A stretch of 37,995 nt of DNA from Candidatus Saccharimonadia bacterium. Lineage in GTDB: Bacteria > Patescibacteriota > Saccharimonadia > Saccharimonadales > SZUA-47. The DNA lies in contig CALLJT010000056.1 in assembly GCA_938050265.1 (NCBI GenBank), forward strand, positions 1 through 37,995, given 5' to 3'. Positions within the stretch are counted from its first letter, which is position 1; every line of letters begins with the position of its first letter. This document shows positions 3,119 to 37,605 of this stretch, piece by piece. The position numbers and the translations under genes are program-made. Below the pieces are notes generated by a model that saw only the letters and a program-made list of their open reading frames with translations, was not told where the DNA came from and ran no database searches.

Positions 3119-4519
3119 TCAGAGGCAGTCTGGGACAACGGTGCCGGGGTCAACAGCAAAGCTTGGTGCGTTTTGCGACAGGTTCCAGTGCAGGTTACCA
3201 AACGGTGTGAGGTTGCTGCCGCTGGCGTTTTTGGTCCAGTAGCCTACAGGAGCACCCGGTTCGTACACGAGGTCGAACGAGTCGCTGCCCGCTCCATGCC
3301 AAGCCAGCACGCCGACTCCCTGTTCTGGTCCGATTTCGTACGCCGACGCAACACTGACGTAATGGTGTTCGGGTTCCGCCCCAAACCCAGCGATGGTGGC
3401 TGCATTGTCTGTGCGTCCGACTTCACCTATGATCAGAGCCATATCATTGTCGTGCACCGTCTGTATGTAGTTTCGCATCGAGTCAGATCCGGCTTTCCAC
3501 TCGGTGTACACATGGAAACTAAACAGCATGTTGCATGTGCCGATTGCTTGCACATCCGGCCCGTATTTAAGTATGGCAGAATCGGTTTGGTCGACCGTTG
3601 TGTAGCCGTTACTGTGGTGGTTTTCTTGACCGAAGTTGCTTCCGTCTACGACGATGATATTAGTGTTGCCGGTCGCGCGGATTGCACGTGTCATGTCGCT
3701 ATGTATGCGTTTCCAAATGTCATGGCTGGGGTCGTTGGTGTAGTGAGTCGGCTCGTTGAACAGGTTGAACCAGACGTATGGGTTGTCTGCATACCGATGT
3801 GCGAGGTCGACGAACTCTGATTCAATGGTGTCGTACTGCCACTGCTGGGGCGGTGAGCCTGCATGGTCGCAGTCATAGCGTCCTTCGAGCATGACGACTA
3901 TTTTTTTGGCTGTGTATTCTTGTATGATTGCGTGCACATCGTCATCTGGGTAGCTGCCGTAGTTCCGGTCTCCTTGTGCGTAGCAGCTGGTCAGTCGAAT
4001 CGTATTGAATCCCCAAGCGAGTGCGTCGTCAGACCGCCCGATTGTTTGGAGCTGTGTTTTGTTGCCATCCCATGCTTCAGGGCCGTTGACGTTGACGCCG
4101 ACAGGATAGAACACGTCACCGGCTGGGTCGATGATTTGTCTGCCGTGAATGAAAAACGACCCAGTCGCTAGACCACGGCTGGCAGTCTCGTCCCTGCCCC
4201 ACTGGCGCATAAAGTAGCTGAGGTCCAGGATGTTGACGACGTTGTCGTTCGTGAAGTCTGCTGTTGTGTCGTTGCTGTTCCAGCGACTCAAGAGGTATGA
4301 CAAATCGGCTATTGTCACACGAAAGTCGCCGTTCGTGTCTGCGATCGGCTCGATTTCGCCGCTGGACGTCCCCTGCACCGTAGGCTCGTCGATCGCCGGC
4401 GTGCTGGCTCGAATGTAGAGAAGTAGCGCTACAAGGCCAAGTATCAGTATGATAACGATTGCTCGTATATATGGGTGTACGTGCTTGGGCATACTGTGTA
4501 CCAGTATACGTTTTAACAT
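3119..4519 (-). CDS. Membrane-anchored glycoside hydrolase family 5 (cellulase/mannanase-type) with a dockerin-like module
   Basis: N-terminal hydrophobic anchor (IRAIVIILILGLVALLLYI). Two EF-hand-like dockerin segments (DTNGDFRVTIADLSYLL and DFTNDNVVNILDLSYFM). GH5/clan GH-A catalytic motifs FNLFNEP (acid/base Glu) and LIIGEVG (nucleophile Glu). Confidence 0.8.
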   Translation of the reverse strand: MLKRILVHSMPKHVHPYIRAIVIILILGLVALLLYIRASTPAIDEPTVQGTSSGEIEPIADTNGDFRVTIADLSYLLSRWNSNDTTADFTNDNVVNILDLSYFMRQWGRDETASRGLATGSFFIHGRQIIDPAGDVFYPVGVNVNGPEAWDGNKTQLQTIGRSDDALAWGFNTIRLTSCYAQGDRNYGSYPDDDVHAIIQEYTAKKIVVMLEGRYDCDHAGSPPQQWQYDTIESEFVDLAHRYADNPYVWFNLFNEPTHYTNDPSHDIWKRIHSDMTRAIRATGNTNIIVVDGSNFGQENHHSNGYTTVDQTDSAILKYGPDVQAIGTCNMLFSFHVYTEWKAGSDSMRNYIQTVHDNDMALIIGEVGRTDNAATIAGFGAEPEHHYVSVASAYEIGPEQGVGVLAWHGAGSDSFDLVYEPGAPVGYWTKNASGSNLTPFGNLHWNLSQNAPSFAVDPGTVVPDCL

Positions 4520-9229: not shown

Positions 9230-9348
9230 AAGTCTTTTCTTTCTCAATGATGCTATGGCATCATTTCTAAAAAAAAAACTTCAATCTTGTCACCCTATGA
9301 ACGTTTGGGTATAAAAAAGCGAGTGCGGGTCAGATATACTATAGGTAT
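9230..9348 (+). promoter_or_regulatory. Duplicated promoter/5' module, copy A (upstream of the FKBP gene)
   Basis: About 120 bp, near-identical to 12798..12917, including a 42-nt 100% identical core. Contains an inverted repeat ATGATGC-N4-GCATCAT (9247..9264), TTGTCA (9287..9292) - 17 nt - TATAAA (9310..9315), and TATACT (9335..9340) 8 nt before the ATG. Confidence 0.7.
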
Positions 9349-10068
9349 ATGAGATTACGAGACGCAGTGGGCATGGTAGCGGCAGGAGCACTCACGACAA
9401 CCGCAGTCGGTGGCTATCTATGGTGGGAAAACAGGTCGAACACTGAGCCAGTTCAGGTGTCACAGCAGCAGAGTTTTCCTTCTGCATTGCGGGGAGCCGT
9501 ACAGCCGTCGCCCACGACGCAGACGCTGCAGGTGCGTGATGCATCAAACACCCCGGCCGGGTCGGACGAAGGCAGCCCTCAAGGCCAGGCTCAAACAAAC
9601 GCTGGCGAACAGCCCTCGCTCGGCACGCAGCTCGGCGGTCCATATGCATCGGACGCCGCTCGCGCAGAATCGCAAGCCACCCTGCCGACGCCAGACCAGT
9701 TCGCACAGTACGAACAATATGAAGAGGCTGGTCAGCTGCTGTATGCAGAAGTAAACCCAGGTAACGGCGAGCAAGCAGTTGTCGGCCGACAGGTTGCCAT
9801 GCTGTATAAAGGATGGCTCACTGATGGTACATTGTTTGACCAGACTGCGACGGACGAAGCAGGCGTTGTGCAGCCGTTTGTGTTCACGCTTGGTGCTGGC
9901 CACGTCATCCAAGGCTGGGACCAAGGCATCGTTGGCATGAAAGTCGGAAGCAAACGACGGCTTGTCATACCGTCAAACCTCGCGTACGGTGACATCGAGC
10001 GCGGCCCTATCCCTGCTCAGTCGATGCTGATTTTTGACATTGAACTCGTAGCGGTCGCACCGGAGTAG
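9349..10068 (+). CDS. Membrane-anchored FKBP-type peptidyl-prolyl cis-trans isomerase
   Basis: N-terminal hydrophobic segment, then a Q/S/P-rich linker, then a canonical FKBP domain (YKGWLTDGTLFD...FVFTLGAGHVIQGWDQGIVGMKVGSKRRLVIPSNLAYG...LIFDIELV). Confidence 0.9.
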   Translation: MRLRDAVGMVAAGALTTTAVGGYLWWENRSNTEPVQVSQQQSFPSALRGAVQPSPTTQTLQVRDASNTPAGSDEGSPQGQAQTNAGEQPSLGTQLGGPYASDAARAESQATLPTPDQFAQYEQYEEAGQLLYAEVNPGNGEQAVVGRQVAMLYKGWLTDGTLFDQTATDEAGVVQPFVFTLGAGHVIQGWDQGIVGMKVGSKRRLVIPSNLAYGDIERGPIPAQSMLIFDIELVAVAPE

Positions 10069-12797: not shown

Positions 12798-12917
12798 AAG
12801 TCTTTTCTTTCTCGATGATGCTATGGCATAATATTGAAAAGAACAAAACTTCAATCTTGTCACCCTATGAACGTTTGGGTATAAAAAAGTGAGTGCAGCT
12901 CAGGTATACTGCTATAT
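12798..12917 (+). promoter_or_regulatory. Duplicated promoter/5' module, copy B (upstream of 12918 gene, divergent from pgi)
   Basis: Same module as 9230..9348. It has the same TTGTCA-17-TATAAA pair and TATACT (12905..12910) 7 nt before the ATG. The inverted repeat carries one mismatch (ATGATGC-N4-GCATAAT). Confidence 0.7.
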
Positions 12918-13817
12918 ATGGGGAAACGCAGCACAGAATTGACTCGGGTGGCGAGAGATTTGAAGCTTGCGCGCGTCCGCCCTCTTGAAGCGCATCGCCA
13001 GCTCGTGGCCGATGGCTGGCGTGCTGACCAGGTCAGTCGTGCTATGTGGCAGGCAGGTTACCGCGACTGGGACTCGATGATGAGCGTGCCACGGGTGAAG
13101 AAGACAATAGCCGTCGGTGGAGCCGTTGTCGTTGTGGGAGTTCTGATGGGTGCAACACTGCTATTTGACAGCCGCCGGGCAGCCCAAACTGAAGTTGCTG
13201 GCGTGAGCGTGCTACGCGACGGTACCGTAGAGTTAACTGAACCAGATCCGCAAGACTGGCAGGAATTCGCAGATACTGCGTCAGGTGTGTCGTTCAGCTA
13301 TCCCGTGTCATGGGTCGTCTCTGATATTGCGACCGATAGTGCCGTGGATGAGTTCGCCTGGCAGATTGAACCAGAACGCAATGAAGCCATACGAGCTGAA
13401 ATCGAAAAACGCTATGGTGATGTACTGAGCGATTCATCTGGCCCATCGCCAGGCGCGCTTGCAATACTGGACGATCCGTTGTTGTCGGAACTTGTCACGA
13501 TCACTGTGTTGTTACGCCGCGCACCAACGTTCGAGATCGAGCAGTCGCTGGACGAGTGGCAAGAGCTCCTCGAACAGGCCATTGGAGACTCCGAAGGAGT
13601 CAGCGTGCGACGTGTTTCTGACCTGCAAATCCATGACACCGATGCACGAGAGTTCGTCACATCTATATCGTTCGGAGGCGCTCCGATTGAAAGTAGAGAG
13701 TTTATCGCACTGATGTCAGATCGTCGCCTCGAAGTCAGCGTGTTCCCTGCGGACACTTCTCAGGGCGTCCTGATCCAGCAGATCGTGGACACAATCGAAT
13801 TCGCACCCTCGCTGTAG
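12918..13817 (+). CDS. Hypothetical type-II membrane protein (short cytoplasmic GW helix module, one TM, extracytoplasmic domain)
   Basis: 299-aa ORF with one hydrophobic span (IAVGGAVVVVGVLMGATLLF). Shares an N-terminal ...L..DGW...V motif and an FSYPVSWVVSD-type motif with the next gene. Confidence 0.6.
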   Translation: MGKRSTELTRVARDLKLARVRPLEAHRQLVADGWRADQVSRAMWQAGYRDWDSMMSVPRVKKTIAVGGAVVVVGVLMGATLLFDSRRAAQTEVAGVSVLRDGTVELTEPDPQDWQEFADTASGVSFSYPVSWVVSDIATDSAVDEFAWQIEPERNEAIRAEIEKRYGDVLSDSSGPSPGALAILDDPLLSELVTITVLLRRAPTFEIEQSLDEWQELLEQAIGDSEGVSVRRVSDLQIHDTDAREFVTSISFGGAPIESREFIALMSDRRLEVSVFPADTSQGVLIQQIVDTIEFAPSL

Positions 13818-19109: not shown

Positions 19110-19230
19110 CGCTGACCCACAGTCACTTTCTTCTCCCGAGTAGCGTTTCGCGCAGAGACACCCCTAGCAGGGGTGTCTCTGGCTGCACTACGCTTATACT
19201 ACTCTTGAGAAAAAAGTGACTATGGGTCAG
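19110..19230 (+). mobile_element. MITE-like palindromic element, copy 1
   Basis: Terminal inverted repeats CTGACCCACAGTCAC.../...GTGACTATGGGTCAG. Perfect 13-bp central stem (19153..19165 / 19169..19181). Flanking 7-bp direct repeat GTTTTAG (19103..19109 and 19231..19237). About 92% identical, as reverse complement, to 37486..37604. Confidence 0.65.
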
Positions 19231-32474: not shown

Positions 32475-32676
32475 CCCCAAAAAAAACCACCTCAAAAACA
32501 CACCTCCAATTCCACGACATCAACACAAACTTGTAATTTCCTAAGAAGTTAAGGGCCAGGCCCTTGGGTATTTGTGGGGTTTTGCTTTTGTGTGGTGAGT
32601 CGTTGTGGGGCGCGTCAAATTTGTGGGGTTGGAGCGGTGGTGGCGGTGGGTGGTGAGATGCGATATACTGGTAGGT

Positions 32677-33804
32677 ATGTTCGGGTTTACTAAAAACGGC
32701 AAAACACAAGAAGTCACCCTGTCCAACCATACGATTATGCGAATAATCGGGTTCGTGATCGGAACAGTATTGTTGATCCGACTCGTTGAAAACATGACAC
32801 ACCCTATCACACTGATATTTGTGTCGTTTTTCTTGTCTCTTGCGCTTAATCCGGCTGTCACGGCAGTGTCTAAGCGCCTCAAAAGTAAAAGTCGCGTCGG
32901 CGGCACCGCGATAGCCTACGGGCTTGTGTCGACTGGTCTTGTACTGTTCACGGTGCTCGTCGTACCGCCACTGATAGCTCAGACTACCGAGTTTATTCGT
33001 GAAGTCCCTGATACAATTTCTGATCTACGCACGCAGGATAGTGCAATCGGGAACTTCATCCGACGCTATGAACTGGAACAGAGTGTACAGGATTTTGCTA
33101 ACGACTGGACACGCAACCTCGGCAACATTACTGGCCCAGCGCTGACCACTGCTAACCGGGTTCTCAGTGGTGTCGTATCTGCTGTGACGGTGTTTGTCAT
33201 GACGTTTATGATGCTCGTCGAAGGGCCGCGGTGGATGGGTGCATTCTGGAAGCAAGTACCACAGCGCCGTCGTAAGCACGACCAAGAGATTGCTAACAAA
33301 ATGTACAAAGTCGTCACGTCGTACGTTAACGGTCAAGTGCTTGTCGCGAGTATCGGTGCGACAATAACCATGGTGTTTTTGGTGATATTTTCAACACTCC
33401 TGGACGAAACAGTTAATGCCGTCGCGTTAGCCGGAATCGTGTTTCTATTCGGCCTTATACCGACTATCGGTGCGATGCTGGGTGCTGTTGCAGTACTGGT
33501 GTTTACGCTTGTGGTCAATCCTACATTGGCGCTCATCATGCTTGGATTTTTCATCATCTACCAGCAGGTAGAAAACGCGACTATCCAACCGTACATCCAG
33601 TCACGCGGCAACGACCTGACACCACTGCTTGTGTTCATCGCAGCAATTATGGGTATCGGTCTTAACGGCATCTTGGGCGGCTTTGTGGCCATCCCAATCG
33701 CCGGTTGTATTAAGGTACTCGTTGACGACAGGCTCGAACAGCGCGAGATGTCTGAGGCGCCCGTTAGACTCGGCTCTTCAAAACTGAAATACAAGAAAAA
33801 ATAA
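32677..33804 (+). CDS. AI-2E family transporter (PerM/UPF0118)
   Basis: Multiple TM spans and family-typical C-terminal blocks (GLIPTIGAMLGAV..., IIYQQVENATIQPYIQSRG, GGFVAIPIAG). I place the start at ATG 32677 (MFGFTKNG...), with TATACT (32664..32669) 7 nt upstream. The ORF-track GTG 32605 lies in a GT-rich non-coding-looking tract. Confidence 0.85.
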   Translation: MFGFTKNGKTQEVTLSNHTIMRIIGFVIGTVLLIRLVENMTHPITLIFVSFFLSLALNPAVTAVSKRLKSKSRVGGTAIAYGLVSTGLVLFTVLVVPPLIAQTTEFIREVPDTISDLRTQDSAIGNFIRRYELEQSVQDFANDWTRNLGNITGPALTTANRVLSGVVSAVTVFVMTFMMLVEGPRWMGAFWKQVPQRRRKHDQEIANKMYKVVTSYVNGQVLVASIGATITMVFLVIFSTLLDETVNAVALAGIVFLFGLIPTIGAMLGAVAVLVFTLVVNPTLALIMLGFFIIYQQVENATIQPYIQSRGNDLTPLLVFIAAIMGIGLNGILGGFVAIPIAGCIKVLVDDRLEQREMSEAPVRLGSSKLKYKKK

Positions 33805-33849: not shown

Positions 33850-35733
33850 TTAGATTTTTTTGACTGTGAAATCTAACTGGATTGGGCGGGATATCGCTTG
33901 CAGGCGCTCCTGCGAGTTGATGGATATGCCATGTTGACTGGCATGGGTGTACAGCGTGATGTGAGCTGGCTGTGGAGGTATAGCTACTTTGTATCGAGCA
34001 CTCATTTGTTCGAAGAACTCGTTAAGTCCCGGGACTTCTACCATGACGACTATTGAACGCTCCGTGCCGTCCTGGACTTCTCGGTACTCATCGCTCAGCG
34101 ACCACGTATCTATGGGTGACGACGAAAGGTATTCGATGAACGCATCGTGCAGCTCCTTTTCAGTCAGTCTTGCATTGTTGGGTGCAACGAGGGGGGCTGT
34201 ACGTTTTAGGCTAATAAGTGTGATGTGAAATTCTGATCTGGCCTTATATGTTATGCCATCCACCACAAGACTACGTGGCAATGGGCCGAGGTCAACCCCG
34301 AAGTGTGAAAAAGAGCGAAAGAAATCGGCGTAAGTGATATGCCTACTTATCTTGTATGTCTTTTCTCGCGTCCTATGCCAGAGCTGCGTATCGCCCGTAT
34401 CTAGCACAGTGACACGGTGATGCGCCAGTACGTCGCGTAGCGTGTCAGACAGTTCCCATTGTTTCTCTGAGCGGGCAGTTCCTCGATCTATGAGTATACG
34501 CTGTAGTTCGTCTTCAAGGTCCTCAACAGTAAGGTCGATTCCAGTCAGAGTCTTGATGTTGTTGACTGCGCGGTCACTGAGGTATGAATGCTTTGATATG
34601 TGCTTGTCGATGATCGCGCTCACGCGTGGCGTATCGAGGTCGTCTGCCAGGGCAGCTTTGATGTCGCTTTCGAGCTGTGTATCGTGTGCATCTTCGTCAG
34701 GCTCTGCTACCTTTTGCTTGCCATACGCTGCTGCTTTTTGCCAGTTTTCCAGTCGGTTCTGGGCAGCGTCCAGGATGTCCCAGGTGAAGTTGCCTTCTGT
34801 GCGGTAGTGTTTGGACAAAAGCATGAGTTTGAATGCGTCGATTTCGAAGTCTTTGTCCAATACGTCTTGGAGCGTGTATACGTTGCCTTTGGATTTGGCC
34901 ATTTTGCCACCGTCGATCTTGATATGGTTGTTGTGCACCCAGAACGTTGCAAAAGGCTTGCCTGTTGCGGATTCGGTTTGCGCGATTTCGTTGGTGTGGT
35001 GGACTGGTATGTGGTCAATCCCACCGGTATGTATGTCGATCTGGTCACCGAGGTGCTCACGTGCTATGACTGAGCATTCCAGGTGCCAGCCAGGAAAACC
35101 TTTGCCCCATGGGCTGTCCCATTCCATATCGCGCTGTGCGCCCTGCGGTGAAAACTTCCAGAGTGCAAAATCTGTCGAATTACGCTTACCGTTGACTCGT
35201 ACACGTGCACCTTCTTGCAACCCAGCTATATCAAGCCGTGCCAGTTTTCCGTAGTCGTCGAGTTGGCTTGCGTCAAAGTACACCCCTTCCCCGTCTATTG
35301 TGTAGGTGTAGCCTTTTGTTTCGAGGTCTTGGACGAACGCAATTTGCTCGTTAATACAGTCAGTTGCGCGTATCAGTGTTGGTTTTTTGAGCTGTAGTAG
35401 CTCGTAGGCTTCTTTGTCGGCTATGTTGATGTATTTTGTAGCTACTTCCCAGGCAGTCATGCCTTCGCTGCGAGCGCCTTTTTCCATCTTGTCTTCACCG
35501 TTATCATCGTCGCTGACAAGGTGACCGACGTCGGTGATGTTCTGGATACGCCGCACATTGTATCCTTCTGCCTCGAGTGCACGTTGCAGGACGTCCCAGT
35601 AGACGTACGACACCCAGTTACCGATGTGTGGTTGACTGTATACGGTGAGTCCACAGGTATATAGAGACACTTCACCTGGCTTGAGCGGCTGCAGTTCTTC
35701 TTTTGTCCTGGTGAGTGTGTTGTAGAGCTTCAT
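33850..35733 (-). CDS. cysS: Cysteine--tRNA ligase fused to a C-terminal 2H-phosphoesterase-like domain
   Basis: Class I motifs HIGN and KMAKS, and a normal CysRS C-terminal end at about aa 454 (...DTGDTQLWHR). The ORF then continues for ~173 more residues in frame. The extension contains EFHITLIS and PAHITLYT 88 aa apart. GAGGG Shine-Dalgarno 5 nt upstream of the ATG. Confidence 0.93.
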   Translation of the reverse strand: MKLYNTLTRTKEELQPLKPGEVSLYTCGLTVYSQPHIGNWVSYVYWDVLQRALEAEGYNVRRIQNITDVGHLVSDDDNGEDKMEKGARSEGMTAWEVATKYINIADKEAYELLQLKKPTLIRATDCINEQIAFVQDLETKGYTYTIDGEGVYFDASQLDDYGKLARLDIAGLQEGARVRVNGKRNSTDFALWKFSPQGAQRDMEWDSPWGKGFPGWHLECSVIAREHLGDQIDIHTGGIDHIPVHHTNEIAQTESATGKPFATFWVHNNHIKIDGGKMAKSKGNVYTLQDVLDKDFEIDAFKLMLLSKHYRTEGNFTWDILDAAQNRLENWQKAAAYGKQKVAEPDEDAHDTQLESDIKAALADDLDTPRVSAIIDKHISKHSYLSDRAVNNIKTLTGIDLTVEDLEDELQRILIDRGTARSEKQWELSDTLRDVLAHHRVTVLDTGDTQLWHRTREKTYKISRHITYADFFRSFSHFGVDLGPLPRSLVVDGITYKARSEFHITLISLKRTAPLVAPNNARLTEKELHDAFIEYLSSSPIDTWSLSDEYREVQDGTERSIVVMVEVPGLNEFFEQMSARYKVAIPPQPAHITLYTHASQHGISINSQERLQAISRPIQLDFTVKKI

Positions 35734-35834: not shown

Positions 35835-36860
35835 TCATGTCTCACTTTCTAGGGCATCCAGCAGTTCAACTGCCTTAGCGTTGACGCGTTTTTTGAGTTC
35901 GTCTATGTTGGTTTGATCCTGGATTTTGAACCCAGCAGCGTATGGGTGGCCACCTCCATCAAAGTGCTCCGCAAGCTCTGCTGCTATGGGGAAGCCGAAG
36001 TTAGCGCGCAGTTTGGCGGTTATGCGCCCGTTGTTGTACACTTTGTAGCCAATAACGATGCCAACCCCTTGAGTCATGCGTAAATCGTCCATGACGAGCA
36101 TGGTGGGGTTGTAGAGCGGGCTGAACTGCTCGATCTCTTTCCACGGTATGGTGACCGAAGCGATCCGTCCGTCGTCTGACAGTTCGCAGCGCTGCAGCAA
36201 CTGACCTTTGTAGTCAAGTAGGCGTGGGTCCTTCATCATGGTGCTGCGCCGTTGCTGTTCGAGCTTCGGTATTGAGACGCCGTGTTCGACGAGATTGGCG
36301 ACCGTATGGATGCTCGTCGGCGTCGTAGCGTCCGTGGTGAGCCCCAGAGAATCGCTCATGATTGATCGTACCATCAGCTCGCACGCGTCGAGTGGGAGCG
36401 GCCACTGCAGTTTGGTAGCGATGTCGTAGATAAGTTCGCCTGTCGCAACCGCGTCTGATTTGATAGTGAGGTCTGCGTAGCTGATGCCGTCGCTCCCAGC
36501 GTGGTGGTCAAGTACTACAAGTGGCTTAGACTTGACGAACCCCCACGCGGTTTGTCGTTCAAAATATTCAAATAGTGATTCAGTACTGTTGTCTACGACA
36601 ATGCTCATGTCGAAGCTGCTCGGTAGATCTCGCCCCACCCTGTCCCATCCATCGATGTATCGCAGATACACGGGCATATCGACCGCACATACCATCATGA
36701 CGCTTTTGCCCATTTCAGTAAGTATCGCCTCTAGGGCAAGGCTGCTCGCCAAGCTATCTCCGTCAGGGTTGTCGGCCTGCAGGACAAGGATTGTCTGAGC
36801 GTTCTTGATGAGTGTACTAAACTCAGCAAGGTCAGTCTCGGTTACAATGTCTTTCGTCAT
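35835..36860 (-). CDS. nrnA: DHH/DHHA1 family phosphoesterase (NrnA-like oligoribonuclease / pAp phosphatase)
   Basis: Motifs DNPDGDSLAS, VLDHHAG (DHH) and GGGHPYAAGF (DHHA1). 341 aa. TATACT (36868..36873, minus) lies 7 nt upstream of the ATG. Confidence 0.85.
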   Translation of the reverse strand: MTKDIVTETDLAEFSTLIKNAQTILVLQADNPDGDSLASSLALEAILTEMGKSVMMVCAVDMPVYLRYIDGWDRVGRDLPSSFDMSIVVDNSTESLFEYFERQTAWGFVKSKPLVVLDHHAGSDGISYADLTIKSDAVATGELIYDIATKLQWPLPLDACELMVRSIMSDSLGLTTDATTPTSIHTVANLVEHGVSIPKLEQQRRSTMMKDPRLLDYKGQLLQRCELSDDGRIASVTIPWKEIEQFSPLYNPTMLVMDDLRMTQGVGIVIGYKVYNNGRITAKLRANFGFPIAAELAEHFDGGGHPYAAGFKIQDQTNIDELKKRVNAKAVELLDALESET

Positions 36861-36949: not shown

Positions 36950-37381
36950 CTACAGGTTCTCTAGTGGTATCTCGAGTTTGCGCGAAGCTTTGCGGCTCCA
37001 ACTGAGCAAGCGGTTGAACTGCGCCTTGAGTGCCGCATGTTCGAGGTCGCTGTCGTCGAGATTCTTGTAGATTGCATCGACGGTGACATGTATTGAATCT
37101 ATATGCTTGTTCTGGTGTTTTACCCCGGCTTCGATGTCAGCCTTGAACGCATAGATCAAGTCCAGGAGTTTGTCGATTTTACTATCCTGTGCGTCCATTC
37201 GTTTGCTCAAGTTTTCGACCTGTGTGTCGATGCGGTTAGATAGGCTCTCGTTTTGCTTGTCGATTTTAAGACTGAGATCGTCAAATTTATCATTTTGTTG
37301 CTGTAGACCACCTCTGAACTCAGAACGAAAATCCTGAAGCAGGGTGATGAGCTGGTCCATGTTTGCAGAGTCTTTAGCCAT
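36950..37381 (-). CDS. Hypothetical coiled-coil protein
   Basis: Heptad-rich sequence with internal repeats (DKQNESLSNRIDTQVENLSKRMDAQDSKIDKL). I place the start at ATG 37381 (MAKDSANM...), with TATACT (37388..37393, minus) 6 nt upstream. The ORF-track start 37408 would include that box. Confidence 0.5.
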   Translation of the reverse strand: MAKDSANMDQLITLLQDFRSEFRGGLQQQNDKFDDLSLKIDKQNESLSNRIDTQVENLSKRMDAQDSKIDKLLDLIYAFKADIEAGVKHQNKHIDSIHVTVDAIYKNLDDSDLEHAALKAQFNRLLSWSRKASRKLEIPLENL

Positions 37382-37484
37382 ATTCCAAGTATACCAGTCC
37401 TGGTTCATCTGAAAATTAAAAGCATATTAAATCTTGACACGTTGAGTTAACTGCTCTGTATTGCTACACGGTGTCCGCTGATCG

Positions 37485-37605
37485 TCTGACCCACAGTCAC
37501 TTTTTTCTCAAGAGTAGTATAAGCGTAGTGCAGCCAGAGATACCCCTCCTAGGGGTTGCCCTGCGCGAAACGCTACTCGAGAGGAGAAAGTGGCTGTGGG
37601 TCAGA
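37485..37605 (-). mobile_element. MITE-like palindromic element, copy 2 (inverted relative to copy 1)
   Basis: The reverse complement aligns to 19112..19230 without indels, with about 9-10 mismatches. Same terminal inverted repeats (CTGACCCACAG.../...CTGTGGGTCAG). Flanking 7-bp direct repeat CTGATCG (37478..37484 and 37606..37612). Confidence 0.65.

Follow-up and report, generated by a model that had tools for sequence, protein, structure and literature searches.

A cysS gene with an in-frame C-terminal extension

The 37,995-nucleotide stretch of Candidatus Saccharimonadia bacterium contig CALLJT010000056.1 that was analysed here (the window) carries a cysS gene whose reading frame continues well beyond the usual end of cysteinyl-tRNA synthetase (CysRS). 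The original prediction had described this open reading frame (ORF) of 627 aa as a complete CysRS followed by an in-frame tail with the motifs of a two-histidine (2H) phosphoesterase, and the ORF listing, TIGR00435 and Pfam together confirmed the complete CysRS and the tail in frame with it (Table 1). TIGR00435 (cysS) scored 389.6 bits against aa 1-452 (cut-off 340), and Pfam CysS_C scored 22.5 bits at aa 405-452, slightly below its 23-bit cut-off; the same region aligned with the C-termini of 15 CysRS relatives. The CysRS signatures HIGN (aa 36-39) and KMAKS (aa 277-281) could be read in the translation, and the columns of Cys27, Cys220, His245 and Glu249 were invariant among the relatives. 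Judged by these matches, aa 1-454 is a complete CysRS, and the CysRS moiety of the fusion is presumably active.

Past the CysRS the frame remains open for 173 codons (33853..34371) without a stop, an extension with a chance probability of about 2.5e-4 under uniform codon usage. The two His codons assigned to the 2H motifs were found exactly where they had been placed, at 34225..34227 (EFHITLIS, His503) and 33961..33963 (PAHITLYT, His591), 88 residues apart.

Table 1. Features of the extended cysS gene and of the genes on either side of it (window coordinates)
Feature	Position	Strand	Basis
Fused ORF cysS::2H-like	33850..35733	-	627 aa + stop; ORF listing; identical protein on contig L105
CysRS class I catalytic domain, aa 14-325, with HIGN and KMAKS	34759..35694	-	Pfam tRNA-synt_1e (5.8e-89); TIGR00435
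CysRS C-terminal anticodon-binding domain, aa 405-452	34378..34521	-	CysS_C; abuts tail directly
Fusion junction, aa 455-462	34348..34371	-	DNA alignment with contigs L002 and L003, protein alignments, sequence
Putative 2H-like phosphoesterase domain, aa 458-627, full-length family copy	33853..34362	-	Leave-one-out HMM, AF2, Foldseek
Motif 1, H503-I-T-L, start of predicted beta-strand	34216..34227	-	Family conservation; strand at tail residues 49-54
Motif 2, H591-I-T-L, inside QPxHxTLY	33952..33963	-	Family conservation; strand at tail residues 136-142
DHH/DHHA1 phosphoesterase, NrnA-like, upstream of cysS	35835..36860	-	Pfam DHH and DHHA1; NrnA model 75.7 vs 350 bits
AI-2E family transporter, convergent, end of syntenic block	32605..33804	+	Pfam AI-2E_transport (7.7e-51); synteny with L003

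The tail is a complete copy of an independent protein

The tail gave no match to Pfam, NCBIfam or PDB sequences (for Pfam and NCBIfam none up to E 10), and a word-index homologue search with the tail as query returned one protein. Repeated with a 116-sequence family alignment, the word-index search returned 19 proteins, among which there was no fusion to an aminoacyl-tRNA synthetase (aaRS). An exhaustive profile search revealed a family of 564 representative clusters (defined at 50% identity) at E≤1e-3 and 243 at E≤1e-10. A hidden Markov model (HMM) of the family built without the window sequence recognised the tail with 155.8 bits (E 4e-50, envelope aa 458-627), so the tail is not chance sequence. 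Most family members are standalone proteins of about 165-180 aa that begin where the tail begins, which indicates that the tail is a complete copy of an independent protein. In the reference genomes, scanned with a 15-sequence alignment, the family was found almost entirely in Patescibacteria, chiefly Saccharibacteria/Saccharimonadales, with further members in Kaiser-, Pace-, Parcu- and Berkelbacteria; no copies were detected in 2.9 million viral contigs. The family is uncharacterised, and neither Pfam nor NCBIfam contains a model for it.

The motif columns are the most conserved of the family. In the 116-sequence alignment His503 is invariant (116/116) and followed by S/T at +2 in 113/116, and His591 occurs in 114/116, with T/S at +2 in 116/116. 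Lys/Arg499, Arg551, Pro486, Gln588-Pro589 and Gly602-Ile603 are conserved as well. The family is acidic in composition, with a median isoelectric point (pI) of 5.3, a median net charge of -7 and a pI >8 in 4% of members only, while four of the five LigT-type comparators have a pI of 8.7-9.7.

The fusion junction and its origin

The closest CysRS relative (P0003) ends in ...WHRTR*, and at the DNA level its CGC TAA AAT aligns with CGA GAA AAG of the window, which places the TAA stop of the relative at the GAA codon of Glu457 (34363..34365). Five codons past Glu457 and six codons before the conserved Tyr468 stands ATA (Ile462, 34348..34350), the position at which the initiator Met of short family members falls. 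No in-frame ATG, GTG or TTG occurs from aa 455 up to Leu485, and Leu485 is inside the conserved domain, behind its conserved N-terminal elements Tyr468 and Phe472; a return to the two-gene state requires at least two substitutions. There is essentially no linker between the anticodon-binding domain and the tail, and scanning the junction for promoters and terminators yielded no relevant element on the coding strand.

A sequencing or assembly error could in principle have erased the stop between a cysS gene and a downstream 2H-like gene that are separate in the organism. One base change (TAA to GAA) would be enough for read-through, the tail is missing from all other CysRS proteins compared, and the two contigs that carry it are both short-read metagenome assemblies, evidently of the same population. 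However, consensus contigs seldom carry substitution errors, and since ATA replaces the family start codon, an artefact would take two or more errors within 20 nt. Moreover, a separate run-level assembly (Logan ERR9287625, contig L105, 5.7 kb) is 100% identical to the window over 5,677 bp including the junction. With this second assembly and the two or more substitutions that a two-gene state requires, an artefact is highly improbable. The predicted architecture, a complete CysRS with an extra domain in frame, thus recurs with the same junction in two assemblies, and the fusion looks real but rare, being seen in one strain only. The survey of CysRS lengths that had been proposed with the prediction showed no tail in the best 120 CysRS relatives (all from Saccharibacteria/Patescibacteria, with at most 69% identity), which are 451-478 aa long.

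Contig L003, whose CysRS shares 65% identity with that of the window, has the same gene order: YbaB, RecR, one further gene, DHH, CysRS, convergent AI-2E transporter, GT4 and alpha/beta-hydrolase. The transporter follows cysS directly there and no tail gene is present, which marks the tail gene as a lineage-specific arrival; in the window, 45 bp separate the stop codons of the cysS fusion and the transporter. In the simplest history, a standalone gene of ~170 aa would have come to sit directly downstream of cysS on the same strand and in the same frame, at first in a two-gene layout with a spacer of ~12 nt. The cysS stop would then have been lost (TAA to GAA), and the internal start would have decayed beyond recognition.

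The gene upstream of cysS had been taken for an NrnA-type nanoRNase. It does contain DHH and DHHA1 and has NrnA as its best NCBIfam match, but the score is far below the cut-off of that model (Table 1), so that it is NrnA-like at the family level only. Because the DHH-cysS adjacency is also present in the tail-less L003, it is ancestral and predates the tail, and the idea of a locus enriched for RNA-end metabolism did not survive this comparison. A specific link between the upstream DHH gene and the tail was rejected on the same evidence.

Relationship of the tail to 2H phosphoesterases

The tail shows the motif pattern of the 2H superfamily: two H-Phi-[S/T]-Phi motifs spaced by 88 aa in a domain of ~170 aa, both on strands. 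The tail was modelled with AlphaFold2 (AF2). With the 116-sequence alignment as input, the model reached a predicted local distance difference test score (pLDDT) of 93 and a predicted template modelling score (pTM) of 0.86; a two-sequence input only gave a pLDDT of 53 and was unusable. The model has both motifs at strand starts and a second half of the pattern beta-alpha-beta(HxT). Compared with classical 2H proteins, its first lobe carries additional strands at the N-terminus, and a beta-hairpin takes the place of their helix.

In a Foldseek search of the PDB the top five neighbours were all 2H proteins, with the rotavirus VP3 phosphodiesterase (PDE), mouse hepatitis virus (MHV) ns2, the poxvirus cGAMP PDE and E. 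coli LigT among them and Acb1 lower. In BFVD the top neighbour was a "Swiss Army Knife 2H phosphoesterase domain" protein (probability 1.0, root-mean-square deviation 4.8 Å over 124 columns), followed by 2'-5' RNA ligases, VP3 and Acb1. Fold similarity to the superfamily is therefore present, with weak scores (E 0.003-0.3, template modelling (TM) score 0.3-0.4). Comparison of the family with one classical 2H protein by hhalign misaligned motif 2 onto motif 1 (probability 1.5%). Against a six-sequence classical 2H alignment the family aligned co-linearly with both His motifs in register (E 0.023, probability 2%), and its first half, compared with its second half for the pseudo-two-fold symmetry of an internal duplication, aligned with the His motifs co-linear (E 0.027, probability 1.8%). 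Neither alignment was significant.

Two results weigh against a 2H assignment: the low Foldseek scores, and the lack of any significant profile link from the tail or the family consensus to the defined Pfam 2H families. The consensus gave only noise against Pfam, and LigT_PEase, 2_5_RNA_ligase2 or 2H-SAK were matched below threshold by 7-9 of the 116 members. The tail might accordingly have a different fold or chemistry, such as that of another hydrolase with a His/Ser-Thr pair, or be a non-catalytic binding module; the low TM-scores, the missing profile match and the beta-hairpin in place of the classical helix would all suit such a protein. Yet the paired H-Phi-S/T-Phi motifs are near-invariant, the top structural neighbours are overwhelmingly 2H proteins in two libraries, and hhalign pairs both motifs in register within one co-linear alignment, which makes a non-2H protein improbable. 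Most probably, then, the tail belongs to a divergent branch that no existing model covers and that has the 2H superfamily's motif pattern and type of fold.

A LigT/ThpR identity, one of the 2H types named in the original prediction, did not hold. The tail has no NCBIfam or Pfam match and no PDB sequence match to LigT, and the search against Pfam 2H models that had been set as its check came out negative, hhalign giving a probability of 2%. The proposed structural comparison did return LigT among the top PDB neighbours, with weak scores. Of the broader claim of a 2H domain, the two motifs, their spacing and the 2H proteins as best structural neighbours stood, and a match to a Pfam 2H model did not. 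By profile comparison the tail is neither LigT/ThpR nor a member of any defined Pfam 2H family, and since motifs and structural neighbours fit while profile support is not significant, we label it "divergent 2H-like".

The family resembles the bacterial and archaeal RNA 2',3'-cyclic PDEs of LigT/ThpR type (LigT_PEase, 2_5_RNA_ligase2; 5LDO, 1IUH, 1VDX, 5H7E) in size (~170-180 aa), in having two H-Phi-T/S-Phi motifs that are spaced by 80-90 residues and each open a beta-strand, in its co-linear hhalign alignment and in its proximity in fold to LigT. It differs from them in the missing profile match, in its acidic composition (LigT-type proteins are basic), in the first lobe with extra N-terminal strands and a beta-hairpin for the helix, and in family-specific residues (Lys/Arg499, Arg551, QP before His591 and GIGI past motif 2). 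Some genomes also carry a classical LigT-like gene alongside the family gene. On two contigs a classical basic LigT-like gene (2_5_RNA_ligase2, E 3e-18; L018:3459-3980 and L023:4648-5166) lies convergent with, and immediately downstream of, the acidic family gene, and this side-by-side arrangement suggests that the two are not redundant.

The 2H-SAK domain (PF22547) provided the best single Pfam link, found in 7 of the 116 members with a best E of 3.9e-6 and weakly in the NUDIX and DHH fusions described below, as well as the best BFVD structural neighbour of the tail (probability 1.0). All of these member matches are below the gathering score, however, and the window tail has none. SAK domains occur in phage or RNA-repair multidomain proteins, whereas the family of the tail is standalone, in housekeeping context, in Patescibacteria, and not in the viral contigs scanned.

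Genomic context and fusions of the family

The context of the family was examined in 101 loci from genome and metagenome scans (85 after dereplication), and upstream neighbours were counted in those 57 of the 85 that offered 2.5 kb or more of upstream sequence. None of the examined loci had cysS near the family gene. A same-strand gene for glycyl-tRNA synthetase (GlyRS) was upstream in 15/57 loci, with GlyRS identities of 46-88%, and directly adjoined the family gene in three loci with gaps of 0-9 bp; in most linked loci, genes for PNPOx-like and DUF167-like proteins and hydrolases stood between the two. Methionyl-tRNA synthetase (MetRS) was upstream in 2/57 loci and GatA in another 2/57. Peptide deformylase was close to the family gene in 4/57 loci and fused to it in one. 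In another clade, CTP synthase was immediately upstream in 6 loci and IMPDH/GMP-reductase downstream in 4. The contexts were housekeeping throughout: we found no defence genes in the family neighbourhoods, and no genes for a kinase, a ligase or Tpt1 either.

In the GlyRS-linked loci of Saccharimonadales, recO is followed by glyS (for dimeric GlyRS), then by up to three small genes and the family gene, all on one strand (L014, L016, L019 and L032, plus 11 further loci; e.g. L016:2523-3935 and 3944-4459). On two Parcubacteria-type contigs, a 313-aa protein with a DHH-like "GGGLFDHHG" motif and no Pfam or NCBIfam match (87% identity; L039:3053-3994, L027:2983-3924) is encoded between MetRS and the 2H-like gene. 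Four loci (e.g. L043:3462-3908) encode, immediately ahead of the family gene, a domain of ~148 aa (…LILEMHVPGF…DFYxxxGFE…) without a Pfam match, which is fused to the family C-terminus in L101 (L101:3929-4948).

Fusions of the family were found with NUDIX at least three times, in both orders, and with a pyrophosphatase-like DHH module, peptide deformylase (Def), ASCH, SnoaL_2, a 6-phosphogluconolactonase-type domain and the 148-aa domain. In the fusion records (L019:3929-4981, P0165, L096:3917-4933, P0146, P0210 and P0209) the family is N-terminal to deformylase, on either side of NUDIX, and C-terminal to the DHH module resembling family II pyrophosphatase. The DHH module of P0209 looks like a family II pyrophosphatase; a comparison showed it to be neither the NrnA-like gene of the window nor the 313-aa protein of L039.

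These contexts bear on the possibility that signalling nucleotides (such as 2'-5' oligoadenylates or cyclic oligonucleotides) are the substrate of the domain, which would then serve immune evasion or regulation in an episymbiont, in the manner of ns2, VP3 and Acb1. The best PDB neighbours of the tail, namely the VP3 PDE, ns2, the poxvirus cGAMP PDE and phage Acb1, are viral or eukaryotic 2',5'-PDEs and cyclic-oligonucleotide PDEs with two-His chemistry, which speaks for such a role. Their scores are weak, though (E 0.1-0.3), and cannot tell 2H subfamilies apart, and the family has no viral or defence context: it is absent from the viral contigs, has no PADLOC or PHROG match, and is found in neighbourhoods without defence genes. 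A signalling role is thus very unlikely.

Possible function of the appended domain

2H domains process 2',3'-cyclic-phosphate RNA ends, 2',3'-cyclic nucleotides and 2'-5' linkages (PMC5512222). By analogy with this chemistry, the appended domain would be a metal-independent two-His phosphodiesterase acting on RNA breakdown products, in which it would open 2',3'-cyclic phosphates or some related ribose phosphodiester; candidate substrates are mononucleotides, short oligonucleotides and ADP-ribose-1'',2''-cyclic phosphate. Its normal role would be housekeeping turnover of nucleotides and RNA ends in salvage-dependent bacteria, and its fusion to CysRS would most likely be a tolerated by-product of tight gene packing behind highly expressed translation genes, and probably no purpose-built tRNA-repair device. 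This reading, a housekeeping cyclic phosphodiesterase acting on RNA breakdown products and joined to CysRS opportunistically, is the one that we tentatively prefer. The acidic family, its NUDIX and DHH fusions and its CTP synthase and IMPDH neighbours lean towards small-molecule or housekeeping work, and the variety of fusion partners indicates opportunistic fusion with neighbours.

Yeast Cpd1 and plant CPDase are a precedent for 2H enzymes acting on ADP-ribose-1'',2''-cyclic phosphate, a small-molecule by-product of tRNA repair; action on such a by-product would explain the NUDIX fusions of the family. The fungal and plant tRNA ligase Trl1/RNL likewise offers a precedent for a 2H domain, the cyclic phosphodiesterase (CPD) domain, covalently joined to tRNA-processing modules, with the difference that the partner is a kinase or ligase there and an aaRS here.

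Besides the missing profile link and the low Foldseek scores, further observations count against the preferred reading. GlyRS, MetRS or GatA is upstream on the same strand in 19 of the 57 loci, and this recurrent association, with a third aaRS in the window, favours a tRNA-related role. In addition, the fused tail, at pI 7.0 and net charge 0, belongs to the top decile of the family. The family might be a tRNA or RNA-end healing factor working with aaRSs. Such a factor would clear 2',3'-cyclic phosphate off tRNA damaged by nucleases, whether at its 3' end or at breaks in the anticodon loop, and the CysRS fusion would serve as a "Rosetta stone" of the partnership. Beyond the fusion itself and the synthetase linkages, several points agree with such a factor: the fusion of a family member to ASCH, which is RNA-binding; the tail being less acidic than typical members; the CPD domain that fungal Trl1 joins to other tRNA-repair modules; and the closeness of the tail to the anticodon-binding domain, which, given the known architecture of CysRS-tRNA complexes, would suit anticodon-loop breaks. 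On the other hand, the family is acidic where the LigT-type comparators are not, nucleotide-metabolism links are about as frequent as tRNA-related ones, and unrelated genes intervene at most GlyRS-linked loci, so that inherited synteny may account for the linkage. The fusion is found in one strain only, and ascertainment is biased, the window having been flagged for its aaRS partner. A healing factor of this kind is somewhat unlikely. The more far-reaching proposal, that this Patescibacteria-specific family is a dedicated aaRS partner that heals damaged tRNA for recharging and constitutes a quality-control module of ultra-small bacteria unknown until now, is less likely still.

For the fusion itself, the original prediction had envisaged repair of tRNA 3' ends coupled to charging. 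In CysRS-tRNA complexes the anticodon-binding domain and the tRNA acceptor end are at opposite ends. Because the tail is joined to the anticodon-binding domain without a linker, and would therefore lie far from the CCA end, repair of that end in cis appears geometrically awkward, and it is disfavoured further by the acidic family and by partners from nucleotide metabolism being as frequent as tRNA-related ones. With the fusion confined to a single strain, coupling of the two activities is no general design. A role of the fusion in tRNA repair is nonetheless plausible.

An aaRS joined to a catalytic domain has been characterised experimentally in the MetRS-aminotransferase fusion of Mycoplasma penetrans (PMC7694997, PMC13215547). 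It resembles the CysRS fusion in combining a complete synthetase core with an unrelated enzyme domain in a small-genome bacterium, and differs from it in partner and chemistry, the CysRS fusion being known from sequence alone and from one strain. As the original prediction had supposed, literature searches found no published aaRS-2H fusion; they found no description of the family of the tail either. New here are thus a 2H-like family and a single-strain aaRS architecture. Should the fusion be functional, it would be the first aminoacyl-tRNA synthetase with an RNA-end or cyclic-phosphate processing domain, and would point to a step of repair before charging in bacteria without most RNA-repair systems. 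Should it be incidental, the analysis still defines a sizeable family, essentially confined to Patescibacteria, with two-histidine phosphoesterase hallmarks and conserved housekeeping neighbourhoods, a candidate enzyme for the cyclic-phosphate products of RNA breakdown in salvage-dependent episymbionts, and the window cleanly illustrates how loss of a stop codon can fuse genes in a compact genome.

Other features of the window

No matches were obtained when the window was scanned for Rfam families and tRNAs. Between recR and the DHH gene lies a 152-aa ORF (36950-37408, minus strand) with coiled-coil-like repeats (…DKQNESLSNRIDTQVENLSKRMDAQDSKIDK…) and no Pfam match; the gene is also called on L105, and L003 has at this position an unrelated-looking ORF of 336 aa on the opposite strand.

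A direct repeat of ~115 nt (86-92% identity) occurs at 9230-9340 and 12798-12910, each copy directly upstream of a plus-strand ORF (9349..10068 and 12918..13817, respectively). No significant structure was predicted for the repeat (z about 0 to -1), and it may represent a duplicated promoter or leader region.

An intergenic palindrome of 119 nt is present at 19112-19230 and 37486-37604, the two copies being 92% complementary. Folding gives a single long hairpin for each copy (-58 and -69.6 kcal/mol, z -7.7 and -11.6), and the sequence of the apical stem varies between the copies while pairing is kept. The palindrome, which has no Rfam match, breaks assemblies, as contig L105 ends within it, and it looks like a repetitive extragenic palindromic (REP) or miniature inverted-repeat transposable element (MITE)-like element or a structured RNA.

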